In this document: piece after piece, positions 2-38,596 of the stretch
How the letters are laid out: each line of letters starts with the position of its first letter
Numbering within the stretch: the stretch's first letter is position 1
Notes under the pieces: generated by a model
What the model was told of the DNA's origin: nothing
The model's database searches: none
What the model saw: only the letters and a program-made list of their open reading frames with translations
Program-made: the position numbers and the translations under genes
DNA from: Minisyncoccota bacterium
GTDB taxonomy: Bacteria; Patescibacteriota; Minisyncoccia; Phycocordibacterales; Phycocordibacteraceae
DNA: 64,000 bases
Assembly: GCA_036399335.1 (NCBI GenBank)
Contig: DASWNF010000009.1
Location: 20,625 to 84,624 of the forward strand
Direction: 5' to 3'

Positions 2-466
2 GAGCTCTATCAAATTGGCCGTGGCGAACAGGGCGTACTCATGGTCGAACCGTATAAGTCGGAAATACTTCCGCACTGGCGATTCAAGACGCCCGAGATA
101 GCCCAAGTATCCTCAAAAGCTATATACGGGCTCTTTCTCGCGTACAAGCGCAAGAAGGATTTCGTTGGTATGGACATGGCGCGAAAGTTCCTGCAGATGG
201 GGTACACGCGTGCCTGCCGCTACGCGAACCATGCGTCCGGGAAGAAGTACGAGAAGAACCCACAAAAGGAGCAAACCAAAGAGATGGAGAAGGACGCACG
301 CCACAAGGTGCGACCCCAAGAGGCGGACTGGAAGACGAGCGAGAAGGCCGAGGCGGCGCGCATATTTTATGGGGTTTATGTAAGGGCACGTGAAGACCCG
401 GCATATAAGAAGATGCGGGAAGCGCATAAGGAGATAGAGGCCACGCGCAAGAAGTTCGAAACCTAG
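2..466 (+). CDS. hypothetical protein; 5' end runs off the window, highly charged Lys/Glu-rich C-terminus
   Basis: The ORF is open to position 2 in frame. Composition is protein-like and it is followed by a hairpin at 490-517. Confidence 0.5.
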   Translation, partial: ELYQIGRGEQGVLMVEPYKSEILPHWRFKTPEIAQVSSKAIYGLFLAYKRKKDFVGMDMARKFLQMGYTRACRYANHASGKKYEKNPQKEQTKEMEKDARHKVRPQEADWKTSEKAEAARIFYGVYVRAREDPAYKKMREAHKEIEATRKKFET

Positions 467-489
467 TCTGCCAGCAATAAATAGAGAAA

Positions 490-517
490 CCGCGTAAACG
501 GAATCTCCGTTACGCGG
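490..517. terminator. bidirectional hairpin between convergent ORFs
   Basis: ccgcgtaaacgg-aatct-ccgttacgcgg stem-loop. Confidence 0.5.
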
Positions 518-534
518 CACTACTGCTGAGTCCC

Positions 535-723
535 TCAGGAAGGCTTTTCGTACGCGATGACCACATTCTCGTCCGGGTTAGATTTGTCGGTGATCAGGAT
601 ACGCGCACCACTTCCAGACTTGGCATGTCTGTACAGATCGTCGACCGAAAGCGGGGAAGTGAATTTTGCCCTCTCCTGCTCATCCACATTCTGGCCAAGA
701 ACCGTGCGTGCTGGTCTTTTCAT
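535..723 (-). CDS. small hypothetical protein (about 62 aa from the internal Met)
   Basis: A minus-strand ORF with charged, protein-like composition. The overlapping plus-strand ORF 557-772 looks less protein-like. Confidence 0.4.
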   Translation of the reverse strand: MKRPARTVLGQNVDEQERAKFTSPLSVDDLYRHAKSGSGARILITDKSNPDENVVIAYEKPS

Positions 724-774
724 GACCTCTACTCCCTTGCTGCCTGGACAGAACCTTAGCATAGTTGCATAAGG

Positions 775-806
775 GTTCCAACATCGTCCCAGACTGCCAG
801 CAATTG
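775..806 (+). repeat. copy 1 of a recurrent ~30-bp intergenic motif (GTTCCAACATCGTCCCAGACTGCCAGCAA)
   Basis: Direct reading. The same motif recurs at 1095, 1411, 2243, 2723, 33777, 34369 and 34747. Confidence 0.8.
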
Positions 807-810
807 TTGT

Positions 811-1092
811 ATGCTTGAGTGTATGGAATTTCTATATAAAGCGTTTCTACTATTGTTCTGGATTGGTGTGACTTGGCTATTGTATAGAGCCCTTAGAAGT
901 GGCCACATAATGCAGTTTGGTCAGTATCCGAACCCGGATTATCGTATTGGTTCTAATAATCCTGATCACCACCTCTACCGGCACTGGGACAGGAGCAAGA
1001 ATCCGACTGCTTTCTACGTAACCCTTGTAGGGGTGATTGTTATCTTATTTTCACTCACAGGACTCGCGTTAATGTCTTTTACTCAAAACTAG
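811..1092 (+). CDS. small membrane protein (2 predicted TM helices), AT-richer cassette-like ORF
   Basis: Two hydrophobic stretches. Its TAG stop directly abuts motif copy 2. Confidence 0.55.
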   Translation: MLECMEFLYKAFLLLFWIGVTWLLYRALRSGHIMQFGQYPNPDYRIGSNNPDHHLYRHWDRSKNPTAFYVTLVGVIVILFSLTGLALMSFTQN

Positions 1093-1094
1093 GG

Positions 1095-1126
1095 CTCGAA
1101 CATCGTCCCCATTCTTCCAGCAATAC
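1095..1126 (+). repeat. motif copy 2 (GCTCGAACATCGTCCCCATTCTTCCAGCAA, more diverged)
   Basis: Aligned to the consensus by eye. Confidence 0.6.
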
Positions 1127-1179
1127 TCTTGGTAGCAGGAAGTGTGGCATACTAACGCAGGCAACCGAGGGAGTTGGAC

Positions 1180-1323
1180 ATGGCATATCTGAGTCGCGAT
1201 ATTATCGAAAAAATGCACGAGCTGCGGAAAGGGTACGAGATTATCGAAGATGCCCGTCAGAGGTATGTCGAGAAGGTTCGGGCAGACCGCGCTGAACCAC
1301 CGCTTCCGCTGGAGCTTCCATGA
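1180..1323 (+). CDS. small hypothetical protein (47 aa), below the ORF-track length cutoff
   Basis: ATG preceded by a GGGAG Shine-Dalgarno-like sequence. It lies between motif copies 2 and 3. Translation: MAYLSRDIIEKMHELRKGYEIIEDARQRYVEKVRADRAEPPLPLELP. Confidence 0.35.
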   Translation: MAYLSRDIIEKMHELRKGYEIIEDARQRYVEKVRADRAEPPLPLELP

Positions 1324-1410
1324 AGTCATGAATCTGAGGCACTGCTCTTTGCAGCTGTTCAACCGCCCAAGCACCATGCTTGGGCGGTTTCGCATACCAT
1401 AGTTCCATCA

Positions 1411-1442
1411 TCGTCCCAGACCGCCAGCAAAAGCTATATACT
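1411..1442 (+). repeat. motif copy 3 (AGTTCCATCATCGTCCCAGACCGCCAGCAA)
   Basis: Direct reading. Confidence 0.8.
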
Positions 1443-1449
1443 TTAGGTC

Positions 1450-2241
1450 ATGATCAACTCATCAGTTCCAGTTCAAAAAATTGGGTCATATTTTGAGATA
1501 GATAACGACGGTTATGTCACGAATCCGAGTTCGCTTGAGAAGCTTCAGGCGGAGTGGAAGCCACTTATTGATGAAGTGGTAGAAGCATATAAGCGTCATT
1601 CTGGAGACACGCTTCACAGCATCTATGTTCGGGGCTCGGTAGCTCGAGGAAAGGCAATAACTGGGATTTCGGACGTCGACAGCTACGCCTACACGACTCA
1701 AGAGGGGAAGCTGGACAAAACCTGGATGAAAGAGGAAGAGGAAACTCTCTTAAAAAGATTTCCCTTTGCGGAAGGTATAGAGTTTTCGCTCGACCTGCTC
1801 AAGTTCGCAGAGGAAGATCACGTTATGCTGGCTCAAAGCGTCTGTCTATACGGCACGGACCTCACGATACAAGCGCCTAAGCTTAAGCCGGGAAGGGATA
1901 TGGTGGTCCATGTCCTCACGCTCGGTAAGCGTCTTGAGTGGCTTGAAAAACGTCTGCAGCAAATCGACAGTGAAGAGGATATTAAAAAGGCCTGCCTCTG
2001 GCTCATGAAGACTTTCTTGCGTTCCGGATTTGAACTCACCATGCCTCTATCCGGTATGTATACGCGTGACCTGTACCCCTGCTACGAGACATTCTCCAAA
2101 TACTATCCGGATCGTGAGTCCCAGATGTGCGAGTTCCTACGTTTGGCTCTTAACCCCATAGCGGATAAGAAGACGCTTAGAGTTATGGCAAGAGAGTTCG
2201 GGGGCTGGCTACAAGAAGAGGCGAAGCGTGTGTATACATAA
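1450..2241 (+). CDS. nucleotidyltransferase-domain protein with ANT(3'')/ANT(9)/AadA-like architecture; putative aminoglycoside adenylyltransferase-like
   Basis: GS-x11-DxD motif (RGSVARGKAITGISDVDSY) closely resembles AadA (LYGSAVDGGLKPHSDIDLL). It has a helical C-terminal domain and 263 aa, the same length class as AadA. Coding is AT-richer than the surroundings. Confidence 0.6.
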   Translation: MINSSVPVQKIGSYFEIDNDGYVTNPSSLEKLQAEWKPLIDEVVEAYKRHSGDTLHSIYVRGSVARGKAITGISDVDSYAYTTQEGKLDKTWMKEEEETLLKRFPFAEGIEFSLDLLKFAEEDHVMLAQSVCLYGTDLTIQAPKLKPGRDMVVHVLTLGKRLEWLEKRLQQIDSEEDIKKACLWLMKTFLRSGFELTMPLSGMYTRDLYPCYETFSKYYPDRESQMCEFLRLALNPIADKKTLRVMAREFGGWLQEEAKRVYT

Positions 2242-2242
2242 G

Positions 2243-2273
2243 AGTTCCAACGTCGTCCCAGACAGCCGAAATT
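2243..2273 (+). repeat. motif copy 4 (AGTTCCAACGTCGTCCCAGACAGCCGAAA)
   Basis: Direct reading. The stop TAA of the upstream ORF abuts it. Confidence 0.75.
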
Positions 2274-2290
2274 AATGTTCTAATAGCTTC

Positions 2291-2716
2291 ATGCAAGAAA
2301 GGGGGGGCAAGATCATTCGCAACGCCTCAGTCCAATTGGCGATTATCTTTCCTTTTATCTGGTTCGTATTGCTTTCCATACAGGCAGTTCGTGAGGGAAC
2401 GGCGAGCATCTATCTCGAAATGGGATGGCTAGCAGTCCCGCTTAGCTTGCTTATGGCAAGTGATTCGTTCGTAAGGTATACAAAGATAGATTTTGAAAAT
2501 AAAACCATTTCTACTAAAGATGGAATTGGGAATAAGACAATCCTTACCGAGGGGAGTCTTCTAAGGATTATTAAAAAGGGTAGTGCCTATGATCTGGTTT
2601 ATTCAGAAAACGGTGTAGAGAAAACGGTACGGTGGTCGCTCTTCTTTTATGCGCCCAAGAAACAAAAGATGATTGTAGAGACCTTATTAGCGTTTAATCC
2701 ACGTGTCGTTAAATAA
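2291..2716 (+). CDS. hypothetical membrane protein (N-terminal TM helices, possible bacterial PH-like C-terminal domain)
   Basis: ORF with two hydrophobic segments. It lies between motif copies 4 and 5. Confidence 0.5.
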   Translation: MQERGGKIIRNASVQLAIIFPFIWFVLLSIQAVREGTASIYLEMGWLAVPLSLLMASDSFVRYTKIDFENKTISTKDGIGNKTILTEGSLLRIIKKGSAYDLVYSENGVEKTVRWSLFFYAPKKQKMIVETLLAFNPRVVK

Positions 2717-2722
2717 GGAAAG

Positions 2723-2754
2723 GGTTCCAGTATCGTCCCAGAGCCCAGCAGGGT
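2723..2754 (+). repeat. motif copy 5 (GGTTCCAGTATCGTCCCAGAGCCCAGCAGG)
   Basis: Direct reading. The stop TAA of the 2291-2716 ORF abuts it. Confidence 0.75.
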
Positions 2755-25313: not shown

Positions 25314-25664
25314 ATGAATGAGGTTGATATACCGATTCTAAAGAAGTCCTATGACTTGTACCGAACTTTTCATGAGTACCGGAAGGTTGTGCCGAAACAA
25401 GACCGTTTTACTATCTTCGAGCGCAGCGAGAACGTGATGCTTGATCTCATCGAGTGCCTCTTGTCGGCCGGGTACGGCGATAAACAAGGTAAGCGCCCGA
25501 TTCTTGAGCGCGCGAGCATAAAATTGAATGTGCTTCGCTTCTTTATCCGGCTCATGAAGGAAACAAAGTCTCTAGATAATAAGAAGTATGTGGTTCTTCA
25601 GGAGATGATCGACGAGATCGGCAGGATGCTAGGAGGGTGGACGCGCTCACTTGAGTCCCGATAA
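25314..25664 (+). CDS. avd: DGR accessory variability determinant Avd (four-helix-bundle protein)
   Basis: 116 aa. IKLNVLRFFIRLMKE ... EIGRMLGGW matches the conserved Avd helices (compare bAvd LAMLRFWLRFL ... EVGRILGSW). Confidence 0.85.
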   Translation: MNEVDIPILKKSYDLYRTFHEYRKVVPKQDRFTIFERSENVMLDLIECLLSAGYGDKQGKRPILERASIKLNVLRFFIRLMKETKSLDNKKYVVLQEMIDEIGRMLGGWTRSLESR

Positions 25665-32795: not shown

Positions 32796-32803
32796 CATAT
32801 ATT

Positions 32804-33141
32804 GTGGACCGGCCCGATAAGCCGAATTCTGTCCGGGGCCGAAGCCCCTAGGACGGTCATCTATCTGGGATGGCTGTTACCAGCCACCTCGAGCGGCGCT
32901 CCAGGTCAAGCCTGGCTCGGCCTTGCACCGGGGTAAGGATTTAGCCGTTTCAGCCCGGGATCGCTCCGGGGACGCTCTCAGGGAGAGCACCTATCCTTTC
33001 GGAATCGGTCGTTTCTGTTCGCACCTCGTAGTTCGCACTAGGCGGGCGTTACCCGCTACCTTGCTGCGCTCTTCCGAGCGCCGGTGTTCGGACTTTCCTC
33101 TAGGGCCGGAGCCCCAGCGACCGTCTAGACCGGTCCGGCAG
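32804..33141 (-). ncRNA. rnpB: RNase P RNA (bacterial type A)
   Basis: Minus strand reads GAGGAAAGUCCGAAC (P4 5' strand), GGUAACGCCCG, AACAGAAACGACCG, and ACAGAAUUCGGCUUAUCGGGCCGGUCC (P4 3' strand plus P1). GG to AA and CC to UU covary in P4. P1 pairs the two ends. Confidence 0.85.
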
Positions 33142-33276
33142 CAATATACCACGCGTATCCATACTAACCATGGTTCGAAACTAGTCTGCCCAGCGATGAT
33201 AAAGAAAAGCCGTCGCTTGTAAGTGCCCATAAGGCGACTTAGAAGCGACGACTTGAGTCTGCTTGCCTAGTTCAGG

Positions 33277-33762
33277 CTAGGCTTCCGGGAAACCGAGGCG
33301 GAGAAACCCATCGGGGTCGTAGACGCCGCCGTTCAGGTGGAAGCTCACGGCACCCTGTACAGAACTGACGTTCTTGATTCTCAGCTCGGCGAGCGCCTTA
33401 GCCAACGAATCCATGTAGCCGTGAAAGGCATAGAGTTGAGCAGGCTTGATAGCCTGGATGGACAGTCGGAACTTAACCGTATGCGCTCCCCATTTGTGGT
33501 CGAAAGCTATGTCAGGCCCAAGAACGCTCGGCTCTTTCCATTCTTCACCCCGCGTAGCATCGCGCCACGGATGCGCTTCGCTAAAGTTCAGGAGCGCTAC
33601 CCGCAAGTCGCTCACGAGGGAATGCCTGGGGTAATAGCGAGAGGTAATGAAGCTGATGCTGCCCTCGCAACTGTGGCGTGTTTGACGCCAGTTTTCACGG
33701 GTCTCCATAGGAGGACCTCCTCTATCGGGCGGAACTACCCGAGACAAATGGTACTCGTCCAA
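33277..33762 (-). CDS. hypothetical protein (orphan)
   Basis: Protein-like ORF between rnpB and the island. An antisense ORF of similar length also exists. Confidence 0.4.
   Translation of the reverse strand: MDEYHLSRVVPPDRGGPPMETRENWRQTRHSCEGSISFITSRYYPRHSLVSDLRVALLNFSEAHPWRDATRGEEWKEPSVLGPDIAFDHKWGAHTVKFRLSIQAIKPAQLYAFHGYMDSLAKALAELRIKNVSSVQGAVSFHLNGGVYDPDGFLRLGFPEA
33708..33762 (-). other. alternative start region; see the CDS 33277-33762
   Basis: Internal Met METRENW. Confidence 0.1.
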
Positions 33763-33776
33763 ATAAGGATGTCAAA

Positions 33777-33808
33777 GTTCCAGCATCGTCCCAGAGCCCA
33801 GCAAGTGC
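33777..33808 (+). repeat. motif copy 6 (AGTTCCAGCATCGTCCCAGAGCCCAGCAAG)
   Basis: Direct reading, 13 nt upstream of the ATG at 33821. Confidence 0.8.
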
Positions 33809-33820
33809 TAGCATAAGAAC

Positions 33821-34345
33821 ATGAATAAATACGTGATACTTGTCGTTTTGTGTGCGGCACTCTTAGGCGTATTCCTTTTAAACAAAAACTGGTCAGGAAA
33901 CGACACGACTAATTACGAAGGGGCGCCAGCCTCCTCAAGCGTTATGAGCGTGATTGACTTAAAGCCAGGAGATATTTCTGGAGGTATGCGTGTAGTTTCC
34001 ATTGAGCCATATAACAAGGAGTTCGGGCCGTTGGCATCAAACAATGCTAAGGCGGAGTTCTCTGGGACTGCGGTAATTGAAGGAGAGTACAACTATTATT
34101 TTAGTGAGCTTGGCGGTGACTGGTGGCTCAGTTTTTCCGCCTCAAGCACGAGTAGTGGGCTTCCGGCGGTCGAAGAAAGATCCCCAGGTTTTAGCGTGAT
34201 CAACCAGGAGGAAGCACTGCGCCTTCTTAAAATCACACCGCAAATAGCTGCAAAGGGTGCGGCTCGCGTTACGGTGCAAAATTACACGTTAGAAAGCTAT
34301 CCATCAGAGGTAAGTGATAAATCAACAATTATTTCCGTAGAGTAA
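33821..34345 (+). CDS. hypothetical secreted protein (signal peptide), AT-richer
   Basis: N-terminal hydrophobic signal sequence. Codon usage is lower-GC. Confidence 0.55.
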   Translation: MNKYVILVVLCAALLGVFLLNKNWSGNDTTNYEGAPASSSVMSVIDLKPGDISGGMRVVSIEPYNKEFGPLASNNAKAEFSGTAVIEGEYNYYFSELGGDWWLSFSASSTSSGLPAVEERSPGFSVINQEEALRLLKITPQIAAKGAARVTVQNYTLESYPSEVSDKSTIISVE

Positions 34346-34368
34346 TCTTGCCGTTCTTAGGGCAGCGG

Positions 34369-34398
34369 TTCCAACATCGTCCCACACTCTCAACAATA
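34369..34398 (+). repeat. motif copy 7 (GGTTCCAACATCGTCCCACACTCTCAACAA)
   Basis: Direct reading. Followed by the hairpin cggccgcag-actag-ctgcggccg at 34400-34422. Confidence 0.7.
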
Positions 34399-34431
34399 AC
34401 GGCCGCAGACTAGCTGCGGCCGCGTTCCATC

Positions 34432-34722
34432 TCAGGCTGGCTTCTGTCCCAGAATCGAAATATTCACTTCTTCAAACCAGCGCTGCTCGAGGAACTCATT
34501 AGGGAGTGGATCCTTCTCGCGCTGCTCCTGCTCACCATGGGCGCGAGCTTTCTCCATCCACGCCTCAGAAATGGCGTCATGGTTTGCCGGGATAGCCGTC
34601 TGTGTGAGAAATGTAGCGAGTCTCCTTAGTCCTTCTTTATCCGTAGGTTTGGTCTCGCTGATAAGATTGAGGACCGACTCATGAAAGGGCATTAGCATGG
34701 TGCTTCTCCTTAGCCTCCACAC
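34432..34722 (-). CDS. hypothetical small protein
   Basis: Minus-strand ORF between motif copies 7 and 8. Confidence 0.45.
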   Translation of the reverse strand: MWRLRRSTMLMPFHESVLNLISETKPTDKEGLRRLATFLTQTAIPANHDAISEAWMEKARAHGEQEQREKDPLPNEFLEQRWFEEVNISILGQKPA

Positions 34723-34746
34723 TATCTAACCCCAACATACTTAAAG

Positions 34747-34775
34747 AAGTTCCAACGCTGTCCTACTGCCAATTA
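34747..34775 (+). repeat. motif copy 8 (degenerate: AGTTCCAACGCTGTCCTACTGCCAATTA)
   Basis: Aligned by eye. Weaker match. Confidence 0.5.
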
Positions 34776-34855: not shown

Positions 34856-37800
34856 ATGGAACTTACCCGCACCTTTGGTGGGTTAAGTAAGAACGACGCC
34901 CCAATCGCCGGCGGGAAAGGTGCGTCCCTTGGCGAAATGACCCAGGCGGGTATTCCGGTGCCTCCCGGATACGTTATTCTCTCTTCCGCCTTCGAGCGCT
35001 TTCTTGAGGAGGCAGACCTCATCCAGGAAGTGGAGGCAATTCTCGGACAAGTAGACCATAACGAGGTCCACACCATAGAACGTGCTTCCGAAGAGATCCA
35101 AGGCCTCATCTTGAACGCGAAGATGCCTGAGAATATCGAAACCGATGTTATGAAACTCTTCAGGGAACTCGATACTGAGTACGTTGCGGTGCGCTCATCC
35201 GCGACTGCTGAGGACGGGGCTGAGCACGCATGGGCAGGACAACTCGACAGTTATCTCAATACGACCGAGGAGGCACTCCTAAAGAACGTACAGCGCTGCT
35301 GGGCGTCTCTCTTCACCCCTCGTGCCATCTTCTATCGTTTCGAAAAGGGCTTGCATACGACCAGCATTTCAGTCGCCGTTGTGGTACAGAAAATGGTCGA
35401 CTCTGAAATCTCAGGGATCGCTTTCTCAGTGCATCCAATCACTGAAGACCGGAACCAGCTCATTATCGAATCGGGCTTCGGTCTCGGTGAAGCTATTGTT
35501 TCCGGCCAAGTGACCCCTGACAGCTACGTGGTCGAGAAGCAGCCACGGAAGCTTATCGATAAGAATATTTCGGCCCAAACCCGCGGCATTTACCGTGCTG
35601 AAGAAGGAGGGAATGAGTGGCGAGATATTCCTGAACCAAAAGCTTCCTCTCAGGTGCTCTCCGATGAGCAAATCCTTGAGCTCTCAGAGCTCGTCATACG
35701 AATCGAGACCCACTACGGCTTCCCATGCGATATTGAGTGGGCGTACGAGAAGGGAAGTTTCTATATAACCCAGAGCAGGCCAATTACGACCCTCTCGTCA
35801 TTAACGAATGAGAATAGGCGACCGCTGTATAGGGTAAATGTTGCACGCGATATTTGCCTCGCTACGTTTGAGGTGTGGGCAGAGAGTGATACCAAGTACC
35901 TCAACGACTGGATAGGAGTTACTACTGAGCGGCTAGTCTTGGAAAGAAAGGAAGGAGTGATTACCGCCTATGAGGACGAGCAGATATTCAAGGATGTTAC
36001 TGAACGGCTCACGTATCTCCTGAAGGACCCAGAGTGGTTCAACACCGCAATTGAGAAATATCGGGCGGGAATCAAACGCGCAGAAGAGCTAAAGGGAGTC
36101 CTTCGAGAGAGCCCTTCTAAGGAGAATTTACGAAGGTTGTTTGAGCAACTTGCTCGTACTCAGGGCGGCCTAGCCGTTGTGTATTTTGTCCCTTCAGTCG
36201 CGGGTATACCTGAGGAGATAAAGGAACGAGCGCTTGATGAGCGTAAGAATACAGAAGCGTTTTTCTATAGCTCTGACGAGGTGCTTAGCGAAGCAATTAA
36301 GACCCTATACCCTGACCAAGCTGAGTATGCGCAAATTCTAAGCATCGAGGAACTTACAACAAATCTTCCTTATGTAAGCGAACTGCAGAAACGACTTAAT
36401 CATTTCATCTATTACGATAAGAAGTTCTTCTATGATCAAGGCCTGGAAGTTGTAGAAAATGAATTAGGTATTCAGATTGAAAGGCCTACGCCTACAAGTA
36501 ACACATATCAGAAGCATCAGCGTGACTACACGCTGCTAGGAACCTCCGTCGTGTTCTCAGGGTACTGCGGTAAAGTTACTCAGGATTACTTCTCCTTCTC
36601 CCCGCAGCCGATGTTCATTTATATAAATAATGGTATTTTGTACCACTTTACCTCTGAGGGGGACTCGGCTGGCCGCGCAAAATCATGGGTGCATAAATAT
36701 GGGTCGGCCAAGGAGCTAGACGCGCACAAGAAGGTGCACGACACTCTCCTAAAGGACTATCGCGCCTTTATGGCGAGGGAAGGTCATAGTGGACGCGAGA
36801 GCCTCCCCATATTGCACAAATATTTTACTAACCTACTTCCTCTAATTCTCGTTGCGATTGAAGTCCCAGAGCATGAGGCGGCAATAGACAAGGAAATTAT
36901 TGACGCGTGTTTTAAGATTCGTTCGGAAAACGAGGACGTGTATAAAGTGGGCTTTGACTTCCAAAAGAAGCTACTTAACCAGCTGGAGACAGAAGACGGG
37001 CTTGCGGAAAACGTCCTCTCGCTTACTACGGTAAACGAGTTTGACAGGTATCTTTCCACAGGCGCATTGCCGACTGATCTAGTAAACAGGAATGCATTTG
37101 CTCTTATAGAGCACGGTACTGGAGGCATTATCGTCCATAAAGATGAATCAAAACTTACTGAGTTAGATCGCCAGGCTACGGTTACTGACACCAGCGAGTT
37201 GAAAGGCAATACTGCGTATGGTGGGAGGGCTACGGGAAGAGTGCGCATTATTAAGCTGGTTAAAGACATGGACCAGCTTCAAGAAGGCGAGGTTCTTGTG
37301 GCATCAATGACGGATCCAAGATACGTTCCAGCGATGAAAAAAGCCGCAGCAATCGTTACCGATGAGGGTGGAGTAACGAGCCACGCGGCGATAGTCGCGA
37401 GAGAGCTGAAGAAGCCCTGCATTATTGGTACCAAAGTTGCCACCCAAGTATTAAGAAATGGAGACGACGTTGATGTGGACGCGGACTCTGGAGTAATCCG
37501 CATAGTGAAGCGAGCGCCATTGTTCAAAAAAGAGGATTACGTACTTTCATTTTGGGCGCAGGGAGTGAGTATTTTTGTTACGGATATTCATTTTGATGCT
37601 TACAAACACCTAGGCATTCTCTTCATAATTGAAGATGGAAAATTCAAACAGTACTTCCTAAAGGAAAAATACGAGGAAGCCCTTGATGAAGGAGTCAAGT
37701 TTTACAGTCAGGAGCATGCGGTCCTGGAGTACAAGGAGGCGCTTGAGGCGCATTGCAATAACCTGGCTCAATTCTTTGAGACTCAAATTAAGGGGAAGGA

Positions 37801-38596
37801 GCATCTCGCTCAAAATCAGGTTAGAGAATTTTTTGAGTACACAAAGAAACTCGTAGGGGACTACACCAAAATGAATTTTGAGTATACGGACAAGGCGTAC
37901 ACCAAGAAGGACCAAGATACAGTGATTGAGAGTAATCTTGCGCTCATCACCAAGTTTAAGGACGAAGTACGGGCCGTCATGAACAAGACCCTCTTTGAAT
38001 CAGATGGCTATGTCGCGGAAATTTGGAAAATCTTGGCTAAACAGTTTGACGTGGCTCCCGCAATGCTCGATAACCTGACACAAGAGGAGATACTTGCATT
38101 GTTTAGTGGCTCTAAGCCAGCTGCTGACGTGGCAGATAGGCGGCACGCGTTTGTATATAGTTACGCGAATCGTATGCCAATAGATGGGGAGGAGGCCGTG
38201 AGCATAGTCAAAGAATTTGAGGAGAACGTAGACGCTGCAATGGAGTTGCGTGGCCAGACGGCAAACAAGGGCAAGGTTAGGGGGAGGGTAAAAGTAATCG
38301 CGGTAGATTACAGCGATTTCGGGAAATTAAACAGAGAAATTGAGCGCATGAAGGAGGGTGAAGTCCTCGTCGCCGAGACGACCGCACCCGAGCTGTTGAT
38401 GGCCTGCAAAAAAGCGGGTGCCATCATTACAGATATGGGTGGCTTGATGTCGCATGCCGCTATCGTGAGCCGGGAGTTCGGCATCCCCTGCATTGTTGGA
38501 ACAAAAAATGCGAGCCAGGTGCTCAAAGACGGTGACTTAGTAGAAGTGGATGCCGATACGGGGGTGGTCACCAGGATTGAAACTAGCCGCAGTTAA
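34856..38596 (+). CDS. large PEP-utilizing-enzyme-family protein: N-terminal PEP-synthase/PPDK-type ATP-grasp nucleotide-binding domain plus two phosphohistidine swivel domains (rifampin-phosphotransferase/PEP-synthase-like architecture, duplicated)
   Basis: GGKGASLGEM ... VAVRSSATAEDG in the N-terminal domain. Two copies of the mobile His domain (GGVTSHAAIVARELKKPCIIGTK and GGLMSHAAIVSREFGIPCIVGTK). AT-richer coding. Confidence 0.75.
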   Translation: MELTRTFGGLSKNDAPIAGGKGASLGEMTQAGIPVPPGYVILSSAFERFLEEADLIQEVEAILGQVDHNEVHTIERASEEIQGLILNAKMPENIETDVMKLFRELDTEYVAVRSSATAEDGAEHAWAGQLDSYLNTTEEALLKNVQRCWASLFTPRAIFYRFEKGLHTTSISVAVVVQKMVDSEISGIAFSVHPITEDRNQLIIESGFGLGEAIVSGQVTPDSYVVEKQPRKLIDKNISAQTRGIYRAEEGGNEWRDIPEPKASSQVLSDEQILELSELVIRIETHYGFPCDIEWAYEKGSFYITQSRPITTLSSLTNENRRPLYRVNVARDICLATFEVWAESDTKYLNDWIGVTTERLVLERKEGVITAYEDEQIFKDVTERLTYLLKDPEWFNTAIEKYRAGIKRAEELKGVLRESPSKENLRRLFEQLARTQGGLAVVYFVPSVAGIPEEIKERALDERKNTEAFFYSSDEVLSEAIKTLYPDQAEYAQILSIEELTTNLPYVSELQKRLNHFIYYDKKFFYDQGLEVVENELGIQIERPTPTSNTYQKHQRDYTLLGTSVVFSGYCGKVTQDYFSFSPQPMFIYINNGILYHFTSEGDSAGRAKSWVHKYGSAKELDAHKKVHDTLLKDYRAFMAREGHSGRESLPILHKYFTNLLPLILVAIEVPEHEAAIDKEIIDACFKIRSENEDVYKVGFDFQKKLLNQLETEDGLAENVLSLTTVNEFDRYLSTGALPTDLVNRNAFALIEHGTGGIIVHKDESKLTELDRQATVTDTSELKGNTAYGGRATGRVRIIKLVKDMDQLQEGEVLVASMTDPRYVPAMKKAAAIVTDEGGVTSHAAIVARELKKPCIIGTKVATQVLRNGDDVDVDADSGVIRIVKRAPLFKKEDYVLSFWAQGVSIFVTDIHFDAYKHLGILFIIEDGKFKQYFLKEKYEEALDEGVKFYSQEHAVLEYKEALEAHCNNLAQFFETQIKGKEHLAQNQVREFFEYTKKLVGDYTKMNFEYTDKAYTKKDQDTVIESNLALITKFKDEVRAVMNKTLFESDGYVAEIWKILAKQFDVAPAMLDNLTQEEILALFSGSKPAADVADRRHAFVYSYANRMPIDGEEAVSIVKEFEENVDAAMELRGQTANKGKVRGRVKVIAVDYSDFGKLNREIERMKEGEVLVAETTAPELLMACKKAGAIITDMGGLMSHAAIVSREFGIPCIVGTKNASQVLKDGDLVEVDADTGVVTRIETSRS

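Follow-up and report, generated by a model that had tools for sequence, protein, structure and literature searches.

An ANT-like-fold nucleotidyltransferase of a separate, so far uncharacterised family in a motif-bounded gene array of a Minisyncoccota bacterium

Background

Nucleotidyltransferases (NTases) of the ANT(3'')(9)/ANT(9) type, such as AadA, AadA1 and AAD(9), are built from an NTP_transf_2 domain and an AadA_C domain (PF13427, formerly DUF4111), while in the ANT(4') enzymes NTP_transf_2 is joined to KNTase_C (PF07827). MntA nucleotidylylates HepT, and GlnE and DrrA likewise modify protein targets. The attC site at the end of an integron cassette is imperfectly palindromic (R''-L''...L'-R') and folds in its single-stranded form.

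[quoted passage not shown] Many proteins have the AadA architecture without these antibiotic determinants and "may perform a different function" (PMC6065190).

In the present study a stretch of 64,000 nt (the window; contig DASWNF010000009.1, assembly GCA_036399335.1) from a Minisyncoccota bacterium was analysed computationally. A first-pass annotation had read the gene at 1450-2241 as an AadA/ANT-like nucleotidyltransferase within a cassette-like array. Resistome surveys based on motif or fold would likewise label its product an aminoglycoside adenylyltransferase. The protein shares the ANT architecture, without the AadA family or its recognisable known substrate determinants.

The NTase gene and the domain organization of its product

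The NTase gene (1450..2241, plus strand) is an ATG-initiated ORF for 263 aa whose N-terminus matches the homolog starts in the alignment. Its TAA stop codon at 2239-2241 is part of the downstream boundary element described below, at the A-rich 5' edge. The protein is 100% identical to P0001, an NCBI [quoted passage not shown] from a 124-kb metagenomic contig, and the ORF is real and intact. A putative -10-like hexamer, TATACT (1437..1442, plus strand), was read by eye 7 nt 5' of the ATG; neither a -35 box nor a clear Shine-Dalgarno sequence was seen by eye in the upstream region, and a scan with the consensus sigma-70 promoter called no promoter there. With a GC content of 0.485 and a GC3 of 0.545, the gene lies below the means of the 30 long ORFs of the window (0.589 ± 0.043 and 0.681 ± 0.089), as expected from its earlier description as compositionally foreign; the flanking core genes have GC3 values of 0.77-0.84.

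Residues 1-33 (1450..1548, plus strand) form a family-specific N-terminal extension with nearly invariant G12, D18 and G21, which has high pLDDT and is mostly non-helical in the AlphaFold2 model. It is followed by a nucleotidyltransferase domain of Pol-beta type (residues 34-141; 1549..1872, plus strand). Residues 61-79 read RGSVARGKAITGISDVDSY, so that the GS-x11-DxD motif reported before is indeed present, with G62-S63, 11 residues and D75-V-D77. From conserved columns and the pairing with AadA, the motif R61-G62-S63...S74-D75-V-D77 (1630..1686, plus strand) is predicted to bind the NTP phosphates and to supply metal ligands. The nearly invariant E111 (1780..1782, plus strand), located in model strand 109-111, is the predicted third carboxylate and general base. 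By position rather than by superposition, it would be the counterpart of AadA Glu-87, and it stands 34-36 residues past the DxD pair compared with 38-40 for Glu-87. Taken with this putative equivalence, the GS...SDxD motif and downstream glutamate of the AadA NTase domain are both present.

The AlphaFold2 model, computed from the family alignment (pLDDT 96.4, pTM 0.89), consists of an alpha/beta NTase domain and C-terminal helices. Five of these (155-171, 175-201, 208-218, 220-234 and 240-261) make up the C-terminal domain (residues 155-261; 1912..2232, plus strand), which agrees with the helical C-terminal half noted in the first-pass annotation and resembles HEPN and KNTase_C in fold only. 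Two segments of this domain are conserved in the alignment, a helix face C182-x-W184-x-M186-K187-xxx-R191-x-G193-x-E195 (1993..2034, plus strand) and a family signature Y204-TRDLYPCY-212 (2059..2085, plus strand). By analogy with Arg-192 and Lys-205 of AadA (PMC6065190), the C182-E195 face may contact the NTP phosphates and the acceptor.

A large family with a conserved C-terminal signature

A word-index search returned 228 homologs of the NTase protein. In an exhaustive profile search the family comprised at least 2,081 cluster representatives (50% identity) at E ≤ 1e-3 and 646 at E ≤ 1e-30, nearly all of them 260-280 aa long. Named members come from Paceibacterota, Taylorbacteria, Nomurabacteria and the cyanobacterium Limnoraphis. 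An alignment of 52 sequences with 35-72% identity was used as the family alignment. G62, V64, S74, D75 and D77 are invariant in it, and R61, S63 and E111 are at least 90% conserved. NTP_transf_2 is matched by 45 of the 52 members (best 4e-8); the window protein itself scores 17.7 bits against a Pfam cut-off of 21, and apart from this sub-threshold match it hits no Pfam domain and no NCBIfam model. The many homologs, the invariant G62, D75 and D77 columns, the NTP_transf_2 matches and the pairing with the AadA motif together argue that the motif is not fortuitous.

In the C-terminal domain, K187 and R191 are invariant and C182, W184, M186, G193 and E195 at least 90% conserved among the 52 sequences; in the second segment R206 and L208 are invariant, and T205, D207, Y209, C211 and Y212 reach at least 90%. 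W36, W184 and W253 are the only conserved tryptophans, and the alignment contains no invariant or nearly invariant histidine, which excludes the Rx4-6H RNase motif of HEPN proteins. None of the 52 members matched AadA_C, KNTase_C, HEPN or another C-terminal Pfam family at E ≤ 0.1. No functional name was found in any source consulted, and the C-terminal half of the family falls outside all Pfam and NCBIfam models. From the invariant basic and aromatic residues of the C-terminal domain and the at least 2,081 clusters it can be argued that the protein is a functional enzyme under selection. Judged by sequence comparison, the family is distinct, large, widespread and so far uncharacterised. Its conserved C-terminal signature could form the basis of a new domain definition, and the substrate is a directly testable question.

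A few members are fused to other domains, namely a GNAT acetyltransferase, Hanks-type Ser/Thr kinases (three clusters) and an HxlR HTH domain. The assignment of the kinase partner to the Hanks type follows from the match to Pkinase at 1e-32 versus 4e-6 to APH. The Hanks-type kinase partners and the HxlR fusion would be as compatible with regulation or with a protein target as with a small-molecule acceptor.

Comparison with AadA and other ANT enzymes

At the level of sequence, the relationship to AadA is confined to the NTase core. The profile check against ANT families and DUF4111 that the first-pass annotation had proposed returned generic NTase core matches only: AadA_C (PF13427) was not matched by the window protein at E ≤ 1, nor was it found in its 52 relatives, whereas the AadA1 control sequence matches AadA_C at 9.4e-34 and the domain is present in 120 of 120 AadA homologs among the matches listed. 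The control sequence was checked to be approximately 99% identical to PDB 7uy4. The first-pass annotation had itself named hits to non-resistance nucleotidyltransferases without an ANT-specific C-terminal domain as grounds against its reading, and the sequence test therefore speaks against membership in the AadA family.

Profile-profile alignment with hhalign paired the motif column by column with AadA YGSAVDGGLKPHSDIDLL (YGS...SDID), in which G62/S63 correspond to G35/S36, S74 to S46 and D75/D77 to D47/D49. This alignment covers 51 columns around GS...DxD at 15% probability and ends after the NTase core; the AadA alignment used (18 sequences, 46-86% identity to AadA1) is narrow, which limits sensitivity. 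With the AadA1 sequence in place of the AadA alignment, hhalign likewise aligned just the GS...DxD core. The N-terminus of AadA aligns only from query residue 38. Since the alignment ends there, it falls short of the AadA substrate determinants, and the invariant AadA block ELQFGEW has no counterpart. A phmmer search of the PDB with the window protein gave no match, and matches of the family profile to the PDB were restricted to profile positions 33-107, the best being 9xbd_E, a minimal NTase of 120 aa (1e-5), followed by kanamycin nucleotidyltransferase (3e-3); AAD(9) reached E 0.52.

At the level of structure the picture is different. A Foldseek search of the PDB with the model ranked AadA, ANT(3'')(9) and AAD(9) at the top, then ANT(4'). 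The ANT matches extend over the full length (E 2e-6 to 4e-4, probability 1.0) with a TM score of only 0.41-0.52 and 11-17% identity; such values point to a family of its own and not to a diverged AadA. As modelled, the two-domain fold can be superposed on the solved ANT(3'')(9) and ANT(9) structures. Only weak NTase matches were obtained with Foldseek in BFVD.

The architecture is thus common to the present family and the ANT(3'')(9)/ANT(9) enzymes, but no relationship between its C-terminal domain and AadA_C can be detected in sequence. Compared with AadA, the NTase adds a conserved N-terminal segment of 33 residues (G12, D18, G21, W36) that has no AadA counterpart, and its net charge of -6 (family median -9) makes it far less acidic than AadA1 (-21). 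Only 148 residues superpose on ANT(4'), whose KNTase_C domain is found in 0 of 52 members, and for LinB/Lnu(B) the Foldseek match has an E of only 0.02 and a TM score of 0.32, with no sequence relationship. The earlier AadA/ANT-like reading therefore holds for the ANT-type architecture, as seen with AlphaFold2 and Foldseek, and fails for the AadA family, given the missing AadA_C and the core-only alignment. The protein is an ANT-like-fold nucleotidyltransferase from a separate family and not a demonstrated AadA-family resistance gene.

Proposed mechanism and alternative functions

The protein is probably an active Mg2+-dependent Pol-beta nucleotidyltransferase with the two-domain architecture of ANT(3'')/ANT(9), belonging to a distinct family; catalytic competence, residue roles and acceptor are proposed by analogy. 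As in AadA and kanamycin nucleotidyltransferase, G62-S63 and S74 would hold the NTP phosphates, and D75, D77 and E111 would bind two metal ions. The invariant K187, R191 and R206 of the helical domain may clamp the triphosphate and the leaving pyrophosphate, and the acceptor would be held in an inter-domain cleft presumably lined by W184, D207, Y209 and Y212. E111 (or E195) would deprotonate the acceptor hydroxyl, which would then attack the alpha-phosphate in-line by a two-metal mechanism to give an O-nucleotidylylated product and PPi. Concerning the acceptor, a small molecule (antibiotic, xenobiotic or metabolite) is tentatively preferred to streptomycin or spectinomycin specifically, a leaning that falls short of a probable assignment. 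It is based on the GNAT and kinase fusions, which resemble bifunctional modifying enzymes, on xenobiotic-like neighbours at some loci, on the lack of a conserved protein partner and on the mildly acidic character of the proteins.

Several points weigh against this best explanation. There is no sequence link to a characterised ANT beyond the universal NTase core. Moreover, the substrate determinants of AadA cannot be recognised in the protein, whose net charge differs widely from that of AadA1. On the same side stand the Hanks-type kinase and HxlR fusions, the anecdotal nature of the xenobiotic-like neighbours, residue roles that come from analogy rather than superposition, and the note in PMC6065190 on proteins of the AadA architecture that lack the antibiotic determinants.

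The alternatives differ mainly in the acceptor. A genuine resistance enzyme of the ANT(3'')/ANT(9) type, which adenylylates streptomycin and/or spectinomycin and is carried on a resistance cassette, would account for these enzymes being the closest structural neighbours, for the equal length of 263 aa, for the pairing of GS...SDxD with the AadA ligands and for the location of a GC-poor unit in a cassette-like array. We consider it highly unlikely; the protein belongs to a separate, large and uncharacterised family, and for this reason the label of resistance gene is premature. A protein target is a better, though still unlikely, candidate: the chain could be a fused MNT and HEPN-like module that AMPylates or nucleotidylylates a protein in a regulatory or toxin-antitoxin-like role, as MntA, GlnE and DrrA do with their targets. 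In contrast to the MNT-HEPN modules MntA-HepT and HI0073/HI0074, however, the two parts are here fused in one chain, the Rx4-6H motif is absent for want of an invariant histidine, and no conserved partner gene was found in 11 contexts. In addition, Pfam HEPN, DUF86 and NTase_sub_bind are matched by 0 of 52 members, and the full-length matches to small-molecule ANTs outscore the separate domain matches.

Synthesis of an anti-phage signal or oligonucleotide, either oligo-dA as by HalB or a cyclic product as by a CD-NTase-like cyclase, with the 141-aa membrane protein encoded at 2291-2716 as effector, is judged very unlikely. The PADLOC matches of the window protein are weak and confined to the NTase core; those to "Cyclase" (1e-3 to 1e-2) cover residues 21-107 only, which is not what is expected of a CD-NTase (CBASS) or SMODS protein, and five of the 52 members match SMODS, none better than 0.014; there is no effector-like neighbour. 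Nor was a HalB-like NTase linked to a HalA-type transmembrane effector found, as in Hailong: the oligodeoxyadenylate synthase HalB is shorter (217 aa) and without sequence relationship to the present protein, a conserved HalA-type partner is lacking here, and the match to HalB is weaker than those to ANTs. The gene for the membrane protein is a separate motif-bounded unit with no homolog beside other family members, the family does not occur on viral contigs, and the surroundings contain no defence genes. The Pol-beta NTase core, together with tRNA synthetase genes near one locus and smpB at another, would be compatible with an RNA 3'-end nucleotidyltransferase acting on tRNA or other RNA; against it stand the absence of PolyA_pol, CCA-adding and RNA-binding domains in Pfam searches, structural neighbours that are ANTs and not CCA or poly(A) polymerases, and contexts that are not conserved, which makes this function extremely unlikely. 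The preferred explanation is still the two-domain nucleotidyltransferase of a distinct family described above.

Genomic contexts of family members

When the neighbours of family members were compared by blastp in 11 loci, no conserved neighbour gene was found. In some cases the gene lies near an RND pump and an MBL-fold protein, a P450 and an ABC exporter, or PhnB/glyoxalase-fold proteins; such xenobiotic-like neighbours are present in 4 of the 11 loci, an anecdotal count in which none is conserved. At one locus a class I tRNA synthetase gene precedes the NTase gene in what looks like an operon, with a class II synthetase gene close by; at another locus the NTase gene follows smpB. A scan of the IMG/VR viral contigs with the pattern RDLY[PRL]CY, taken from the family signature, did not detect the family.

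The NTase gene is GC-poorer than its locus in six of seven loci, suggesting that horizontal acquisition is frequent. The relative nearest in sequence (72% identity) has a different context without the boundary motif, and among six homolog loci examined the motif is absent from five and degenerate in the sixth. Conversely, the NTase family is absent from all 120 motif-bearing loci among the matches listed, and the NTase is thus not a typical passenger of motif-bounded arrays. In the source genome, as part of the best explanation taken as a whole, it is probably a horizontally acquired accessory gene that forms one unit of such an array.

The boundary element and the arrays of the window

The NTase unit is enclosed by two short-form copies of a boundary element at 1398..1434 (nhmmer E 7.9e-9) and 2235..2273 (E 7.7e-9), both on the plus strand and assigned to repeat families D1/D2, so that the earlier term motif-bounded is appropriate. 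The element of approximately 36 nt has the form A.AAAG-GTTCCAACATCGTCCCAGAC-nGCCAGCAAt; in a long form of approximately 66 nt, which occurs beside unrelated ORFs, TCTRGACAGAACCTANCAYAGATTGCAKAAAG is added upstream. Its core 11-mer occurs 6 times in the window, compared with 1.2 expected. The element matches no Rfam family. Readings of the motif as a sigma-54 or ECF promoter, a dif/Xer site or a tRNA 3'-end were dropped by eye owing to poor fit.

Array 1 (447..2746, plus strand) contains six co-oriented copies of the element that delimit five single-gene units. Besides the two copies at the NTase gene, these are a variant copy at 447-478 that overlaps the DUF4385 stop codon, a long form at 746/765-808, a degenerate copy at 1090-1124 and a copy at 2719-2746. 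Of the unit ORFs, one (62-75 aa) is encoded on the minus strand and four (93 aa, 47 aa, the NTase gene and 141 aa) on the plus strand; they match no Pfam family. Array 1 shows no enrichment of canonical sigma-70 promoters, and the extended -10 boxes read by eye are therefore unsupported. Between the RNase P RNA gene and the start of array 2 (33172-34775), which has four copies of the element, lie 36 nt. In 80 metagenome loci of DUF4385 orthologs, of which the closest is only 71% identical, the motif was not found; at this distance the comparison says nothing about synteny.

The first-pass annotation had interpreted array 1 as cassette-like. Like integron cassettes and CALINs, the arrays consist of tandem single-gene units with a repeated co-oriented site, their content is hypervariable and often GC-poor, and no protein family is common to them. 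Unlike attC, the site of approximately 36 nt is conserved in sequence across the radiation, is unfolded and lacks R''/L''/L'/R' boxes, and unlike integron cassettes the genes occur in both orientations (47:29) without an IntI nearby. An attC-like hairpin was tried and rejected, as the short forms flanking the NTase gene fold no better than shuffled sequences (z +0.5 to +1.0, plus strand); for single-stranded folding of the long-form element z was -0.9 and -1.2 against shuffles. No Phage_integrase or recombinase Pfam family was found among the called genes within 10 kb of either array of the window. With hypervariable units and no integrase nearby, the array is not a canonical integron. The cassette interpretation hence stands for the single-gene units and the repeated co-oriented site, and fails for the attC fold and the integrase: the array is cassette-like in organisation and lacks the defining features of integron cassettes.

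Distribution of the element in Patescibacteria

A scan of GTDB species representatives with a core of 16 specified bases yielded at least 120 stretches. Single matches in unrelated phyla fit the chance expectation (a few hundred), while all multi-copy loci with an informative title belong to Patescibacteria, including Saccharibacteria, Paceibacteria, Parcubacteria, Nomurabacteria, Lloydbacteria and Minisyncoccia. The 34 loci contain 79 units with a median of 552 nt. In none of them is the element found on both strands of one locus, and the longest ORF is co-directional with the element in 47 units and opposite in 29. No protein family is common to the arrays of different loci (34 loci, 79 units), none recurs beside the arrays in the 34 loci, and no recombinase was found within 8-10 kb. 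Across Patescibacteria it is the sequence of the element that is conserved and not a structure. The literature searched describes neither the motif nor cassette arrays in CPR bacteria, and the motif-bounded arrays are more unusual than the NTase itself.

The element may serve in recombination or, alternatively, act as a signal for transcription, processing or insulation. In the former case, the NTase could be cargo of a so far undescribed gene-capture platform of Patescibacteria with a site conserved in sequence from Saccharibacteria to Paceibacteria and a recombinase encoded elsewhere, a reading that is possible rather than probable. Tandem single-gene units would be inserted in either orientation at the co-oriented site of approximately 36 nt (long form approximately 66 nt), which would be recognised by its double-strand sequence rather than as a folded attC; such a platform would be a functional analogue of integrons with a different mechanism. 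The NTase family would then represent an exchangeable accessory or defensive enzyme, and a motif that marks a recombination platform would bear on the gain and shuffling of accessory genes in bacteria with small genomes that are often host-dependent. In several divergent genomes the arrays adjoin dnaX and a gene for an HI0933-like flavoprotein, with different content in each.

Distribution and structure of the boundary element

Hypervariable single-gene units were found to be delimited by copies of an intergenic, co-oriented and sequence-conserved element of about 36 nt (A.AAAG-GTTCCAACATCGTCCCAGAC-nGCCAGCAAt). The window contains two arrays of this element (array 1, 447-2746; array 2, 33172-34775), and such arrays are present across many lineages of the Patescibacteria (candidate phyla radiation, CPR), where the element-bearing loci included L010, L013, L019/L120, L022, L023, L027, L030, L032, L043, L054, L069, L092, L100, L103, L108 and L126, among others. 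The units (79 in 34 loci) had a median length of 552 nt, and no cassette protein was common to different arrays in this set. Neither a recombinase adjoining the arrays nor an ssDNA fold of the element was found; the element had no match in Rfam, and no description of it was found in the searched literature. These arrays may constitute a system for gene capture or for regulation that has not yet been described.

A longer form of the element, about 66 nt in length, consists of the core and a conserved upstream block, TCTRGACAGAACCTANCAYAGATTGCAKAAAG. It is located at 746-808 in the window, in three copies in L030, and in L019, L032, L054, L088, L103 and L120; the ORFs beside it are mutually unrelated. 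The element core and the left arm of this form make up an imperfect inverted repeat, and an AGAC(A/T)G box is also repeated in this arm, at a distance of about 44 nt. The hairpin predicted for the long form was not significant (z about -1).

Array starts and conserved flanks

A single variant of the element, GTTCGAAAC(C)TAGTCTGCC(C)AGC, opens both arrays of the window; the central GTCCCAGA block is missing from it. In array 1 a DUF4385 gene (41-466) has its stop codon within this variant (447-478), and in array 2 (33172-33196) the 5′ end of the RNase P RNA gene (32802-33136, minus strand) is 36 nt away from it. This array-opening variant could represent the form of the element that serves as a chromosomal attachment site. 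Near the arrays, several divergent CPR genomes (L013, L022, L069, L082, L092, L100 and L120) share housekeeping genes, namely dnaX and/or a gene for an HI0933-like flavoprotein. These neighbours are 51-70% identical between genomes and the units of the adjacent arrays are unrelated, i.e., the flank is conserved and the content is variable.

Downstream of the array 1 start, a perfect-stem hairpin (CCGCGTAAACGG...CCGTTACGCGG, 491-517) between the DUF4385 gene and the convergent minus-strand ORF of 62-75 aa in the first unit is probably a bidirectional terminator. At other loci, similar hairpins were observed after the element wherever the next unit was reversed. An independent 2.9-kb assembly of the array 1 locus (L003, a Logan contig of SRR10954984) begins at window position 775, exactly where an element copy starts. 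This copy is identical to the CPR-wide consensus, and the contig start is compatible with branching of the assembly graph at the element, caused by k-mers shared with other CPR genomes or by alternative junctions.

Large ORF downstream of array 2

Array 2 closes with a degenerate element copy, directly followed by an ORF of 1,246 aa (34856-38596, plus strand) with a low GC content of 0.487. This ORF is possibly an acquired unit of very large size. It encodes a PPDK_N ATP-grasp domain together with two swivel domains of the PEP-utilizer type, a phosphotransferase architecture reminiscent of rifampin phosphotransferase-type enzymes, which are shorter.

The nucleotidyltransferase family and a bAvd-type gene

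Some relatives of the ANT-fold nucleotidyltransferase encoded in array 1 (1450-2241, plus strand) are fusion proteins (P0147, P0165, P0166, P0186 and P0201), with a GNAT acetyltransferase at the C-terminus or, at the N-terminus, either an HxlR HTH domain or Ser/Thr kinase domains of the Hanks type. In L219 the gene for a kinase fusion is flanked by Mur-ligase-like genes. In most genomes sampled the family gene is GC-poorer than the surrounding locus (L129, with 0.436 versus 0.586, L133, L004, L005 and L007, in contrast to L131), which hints at common horizontal transfer of the family, even where the boundary motif is not present.

Accessory variability determinants (bAvd) belong to diversity-generating retroelements, and a gene with a Pfam bAvd match in its product at about 25314-25664 (L135, 459-809) suggests a retroelement of this type nearby.
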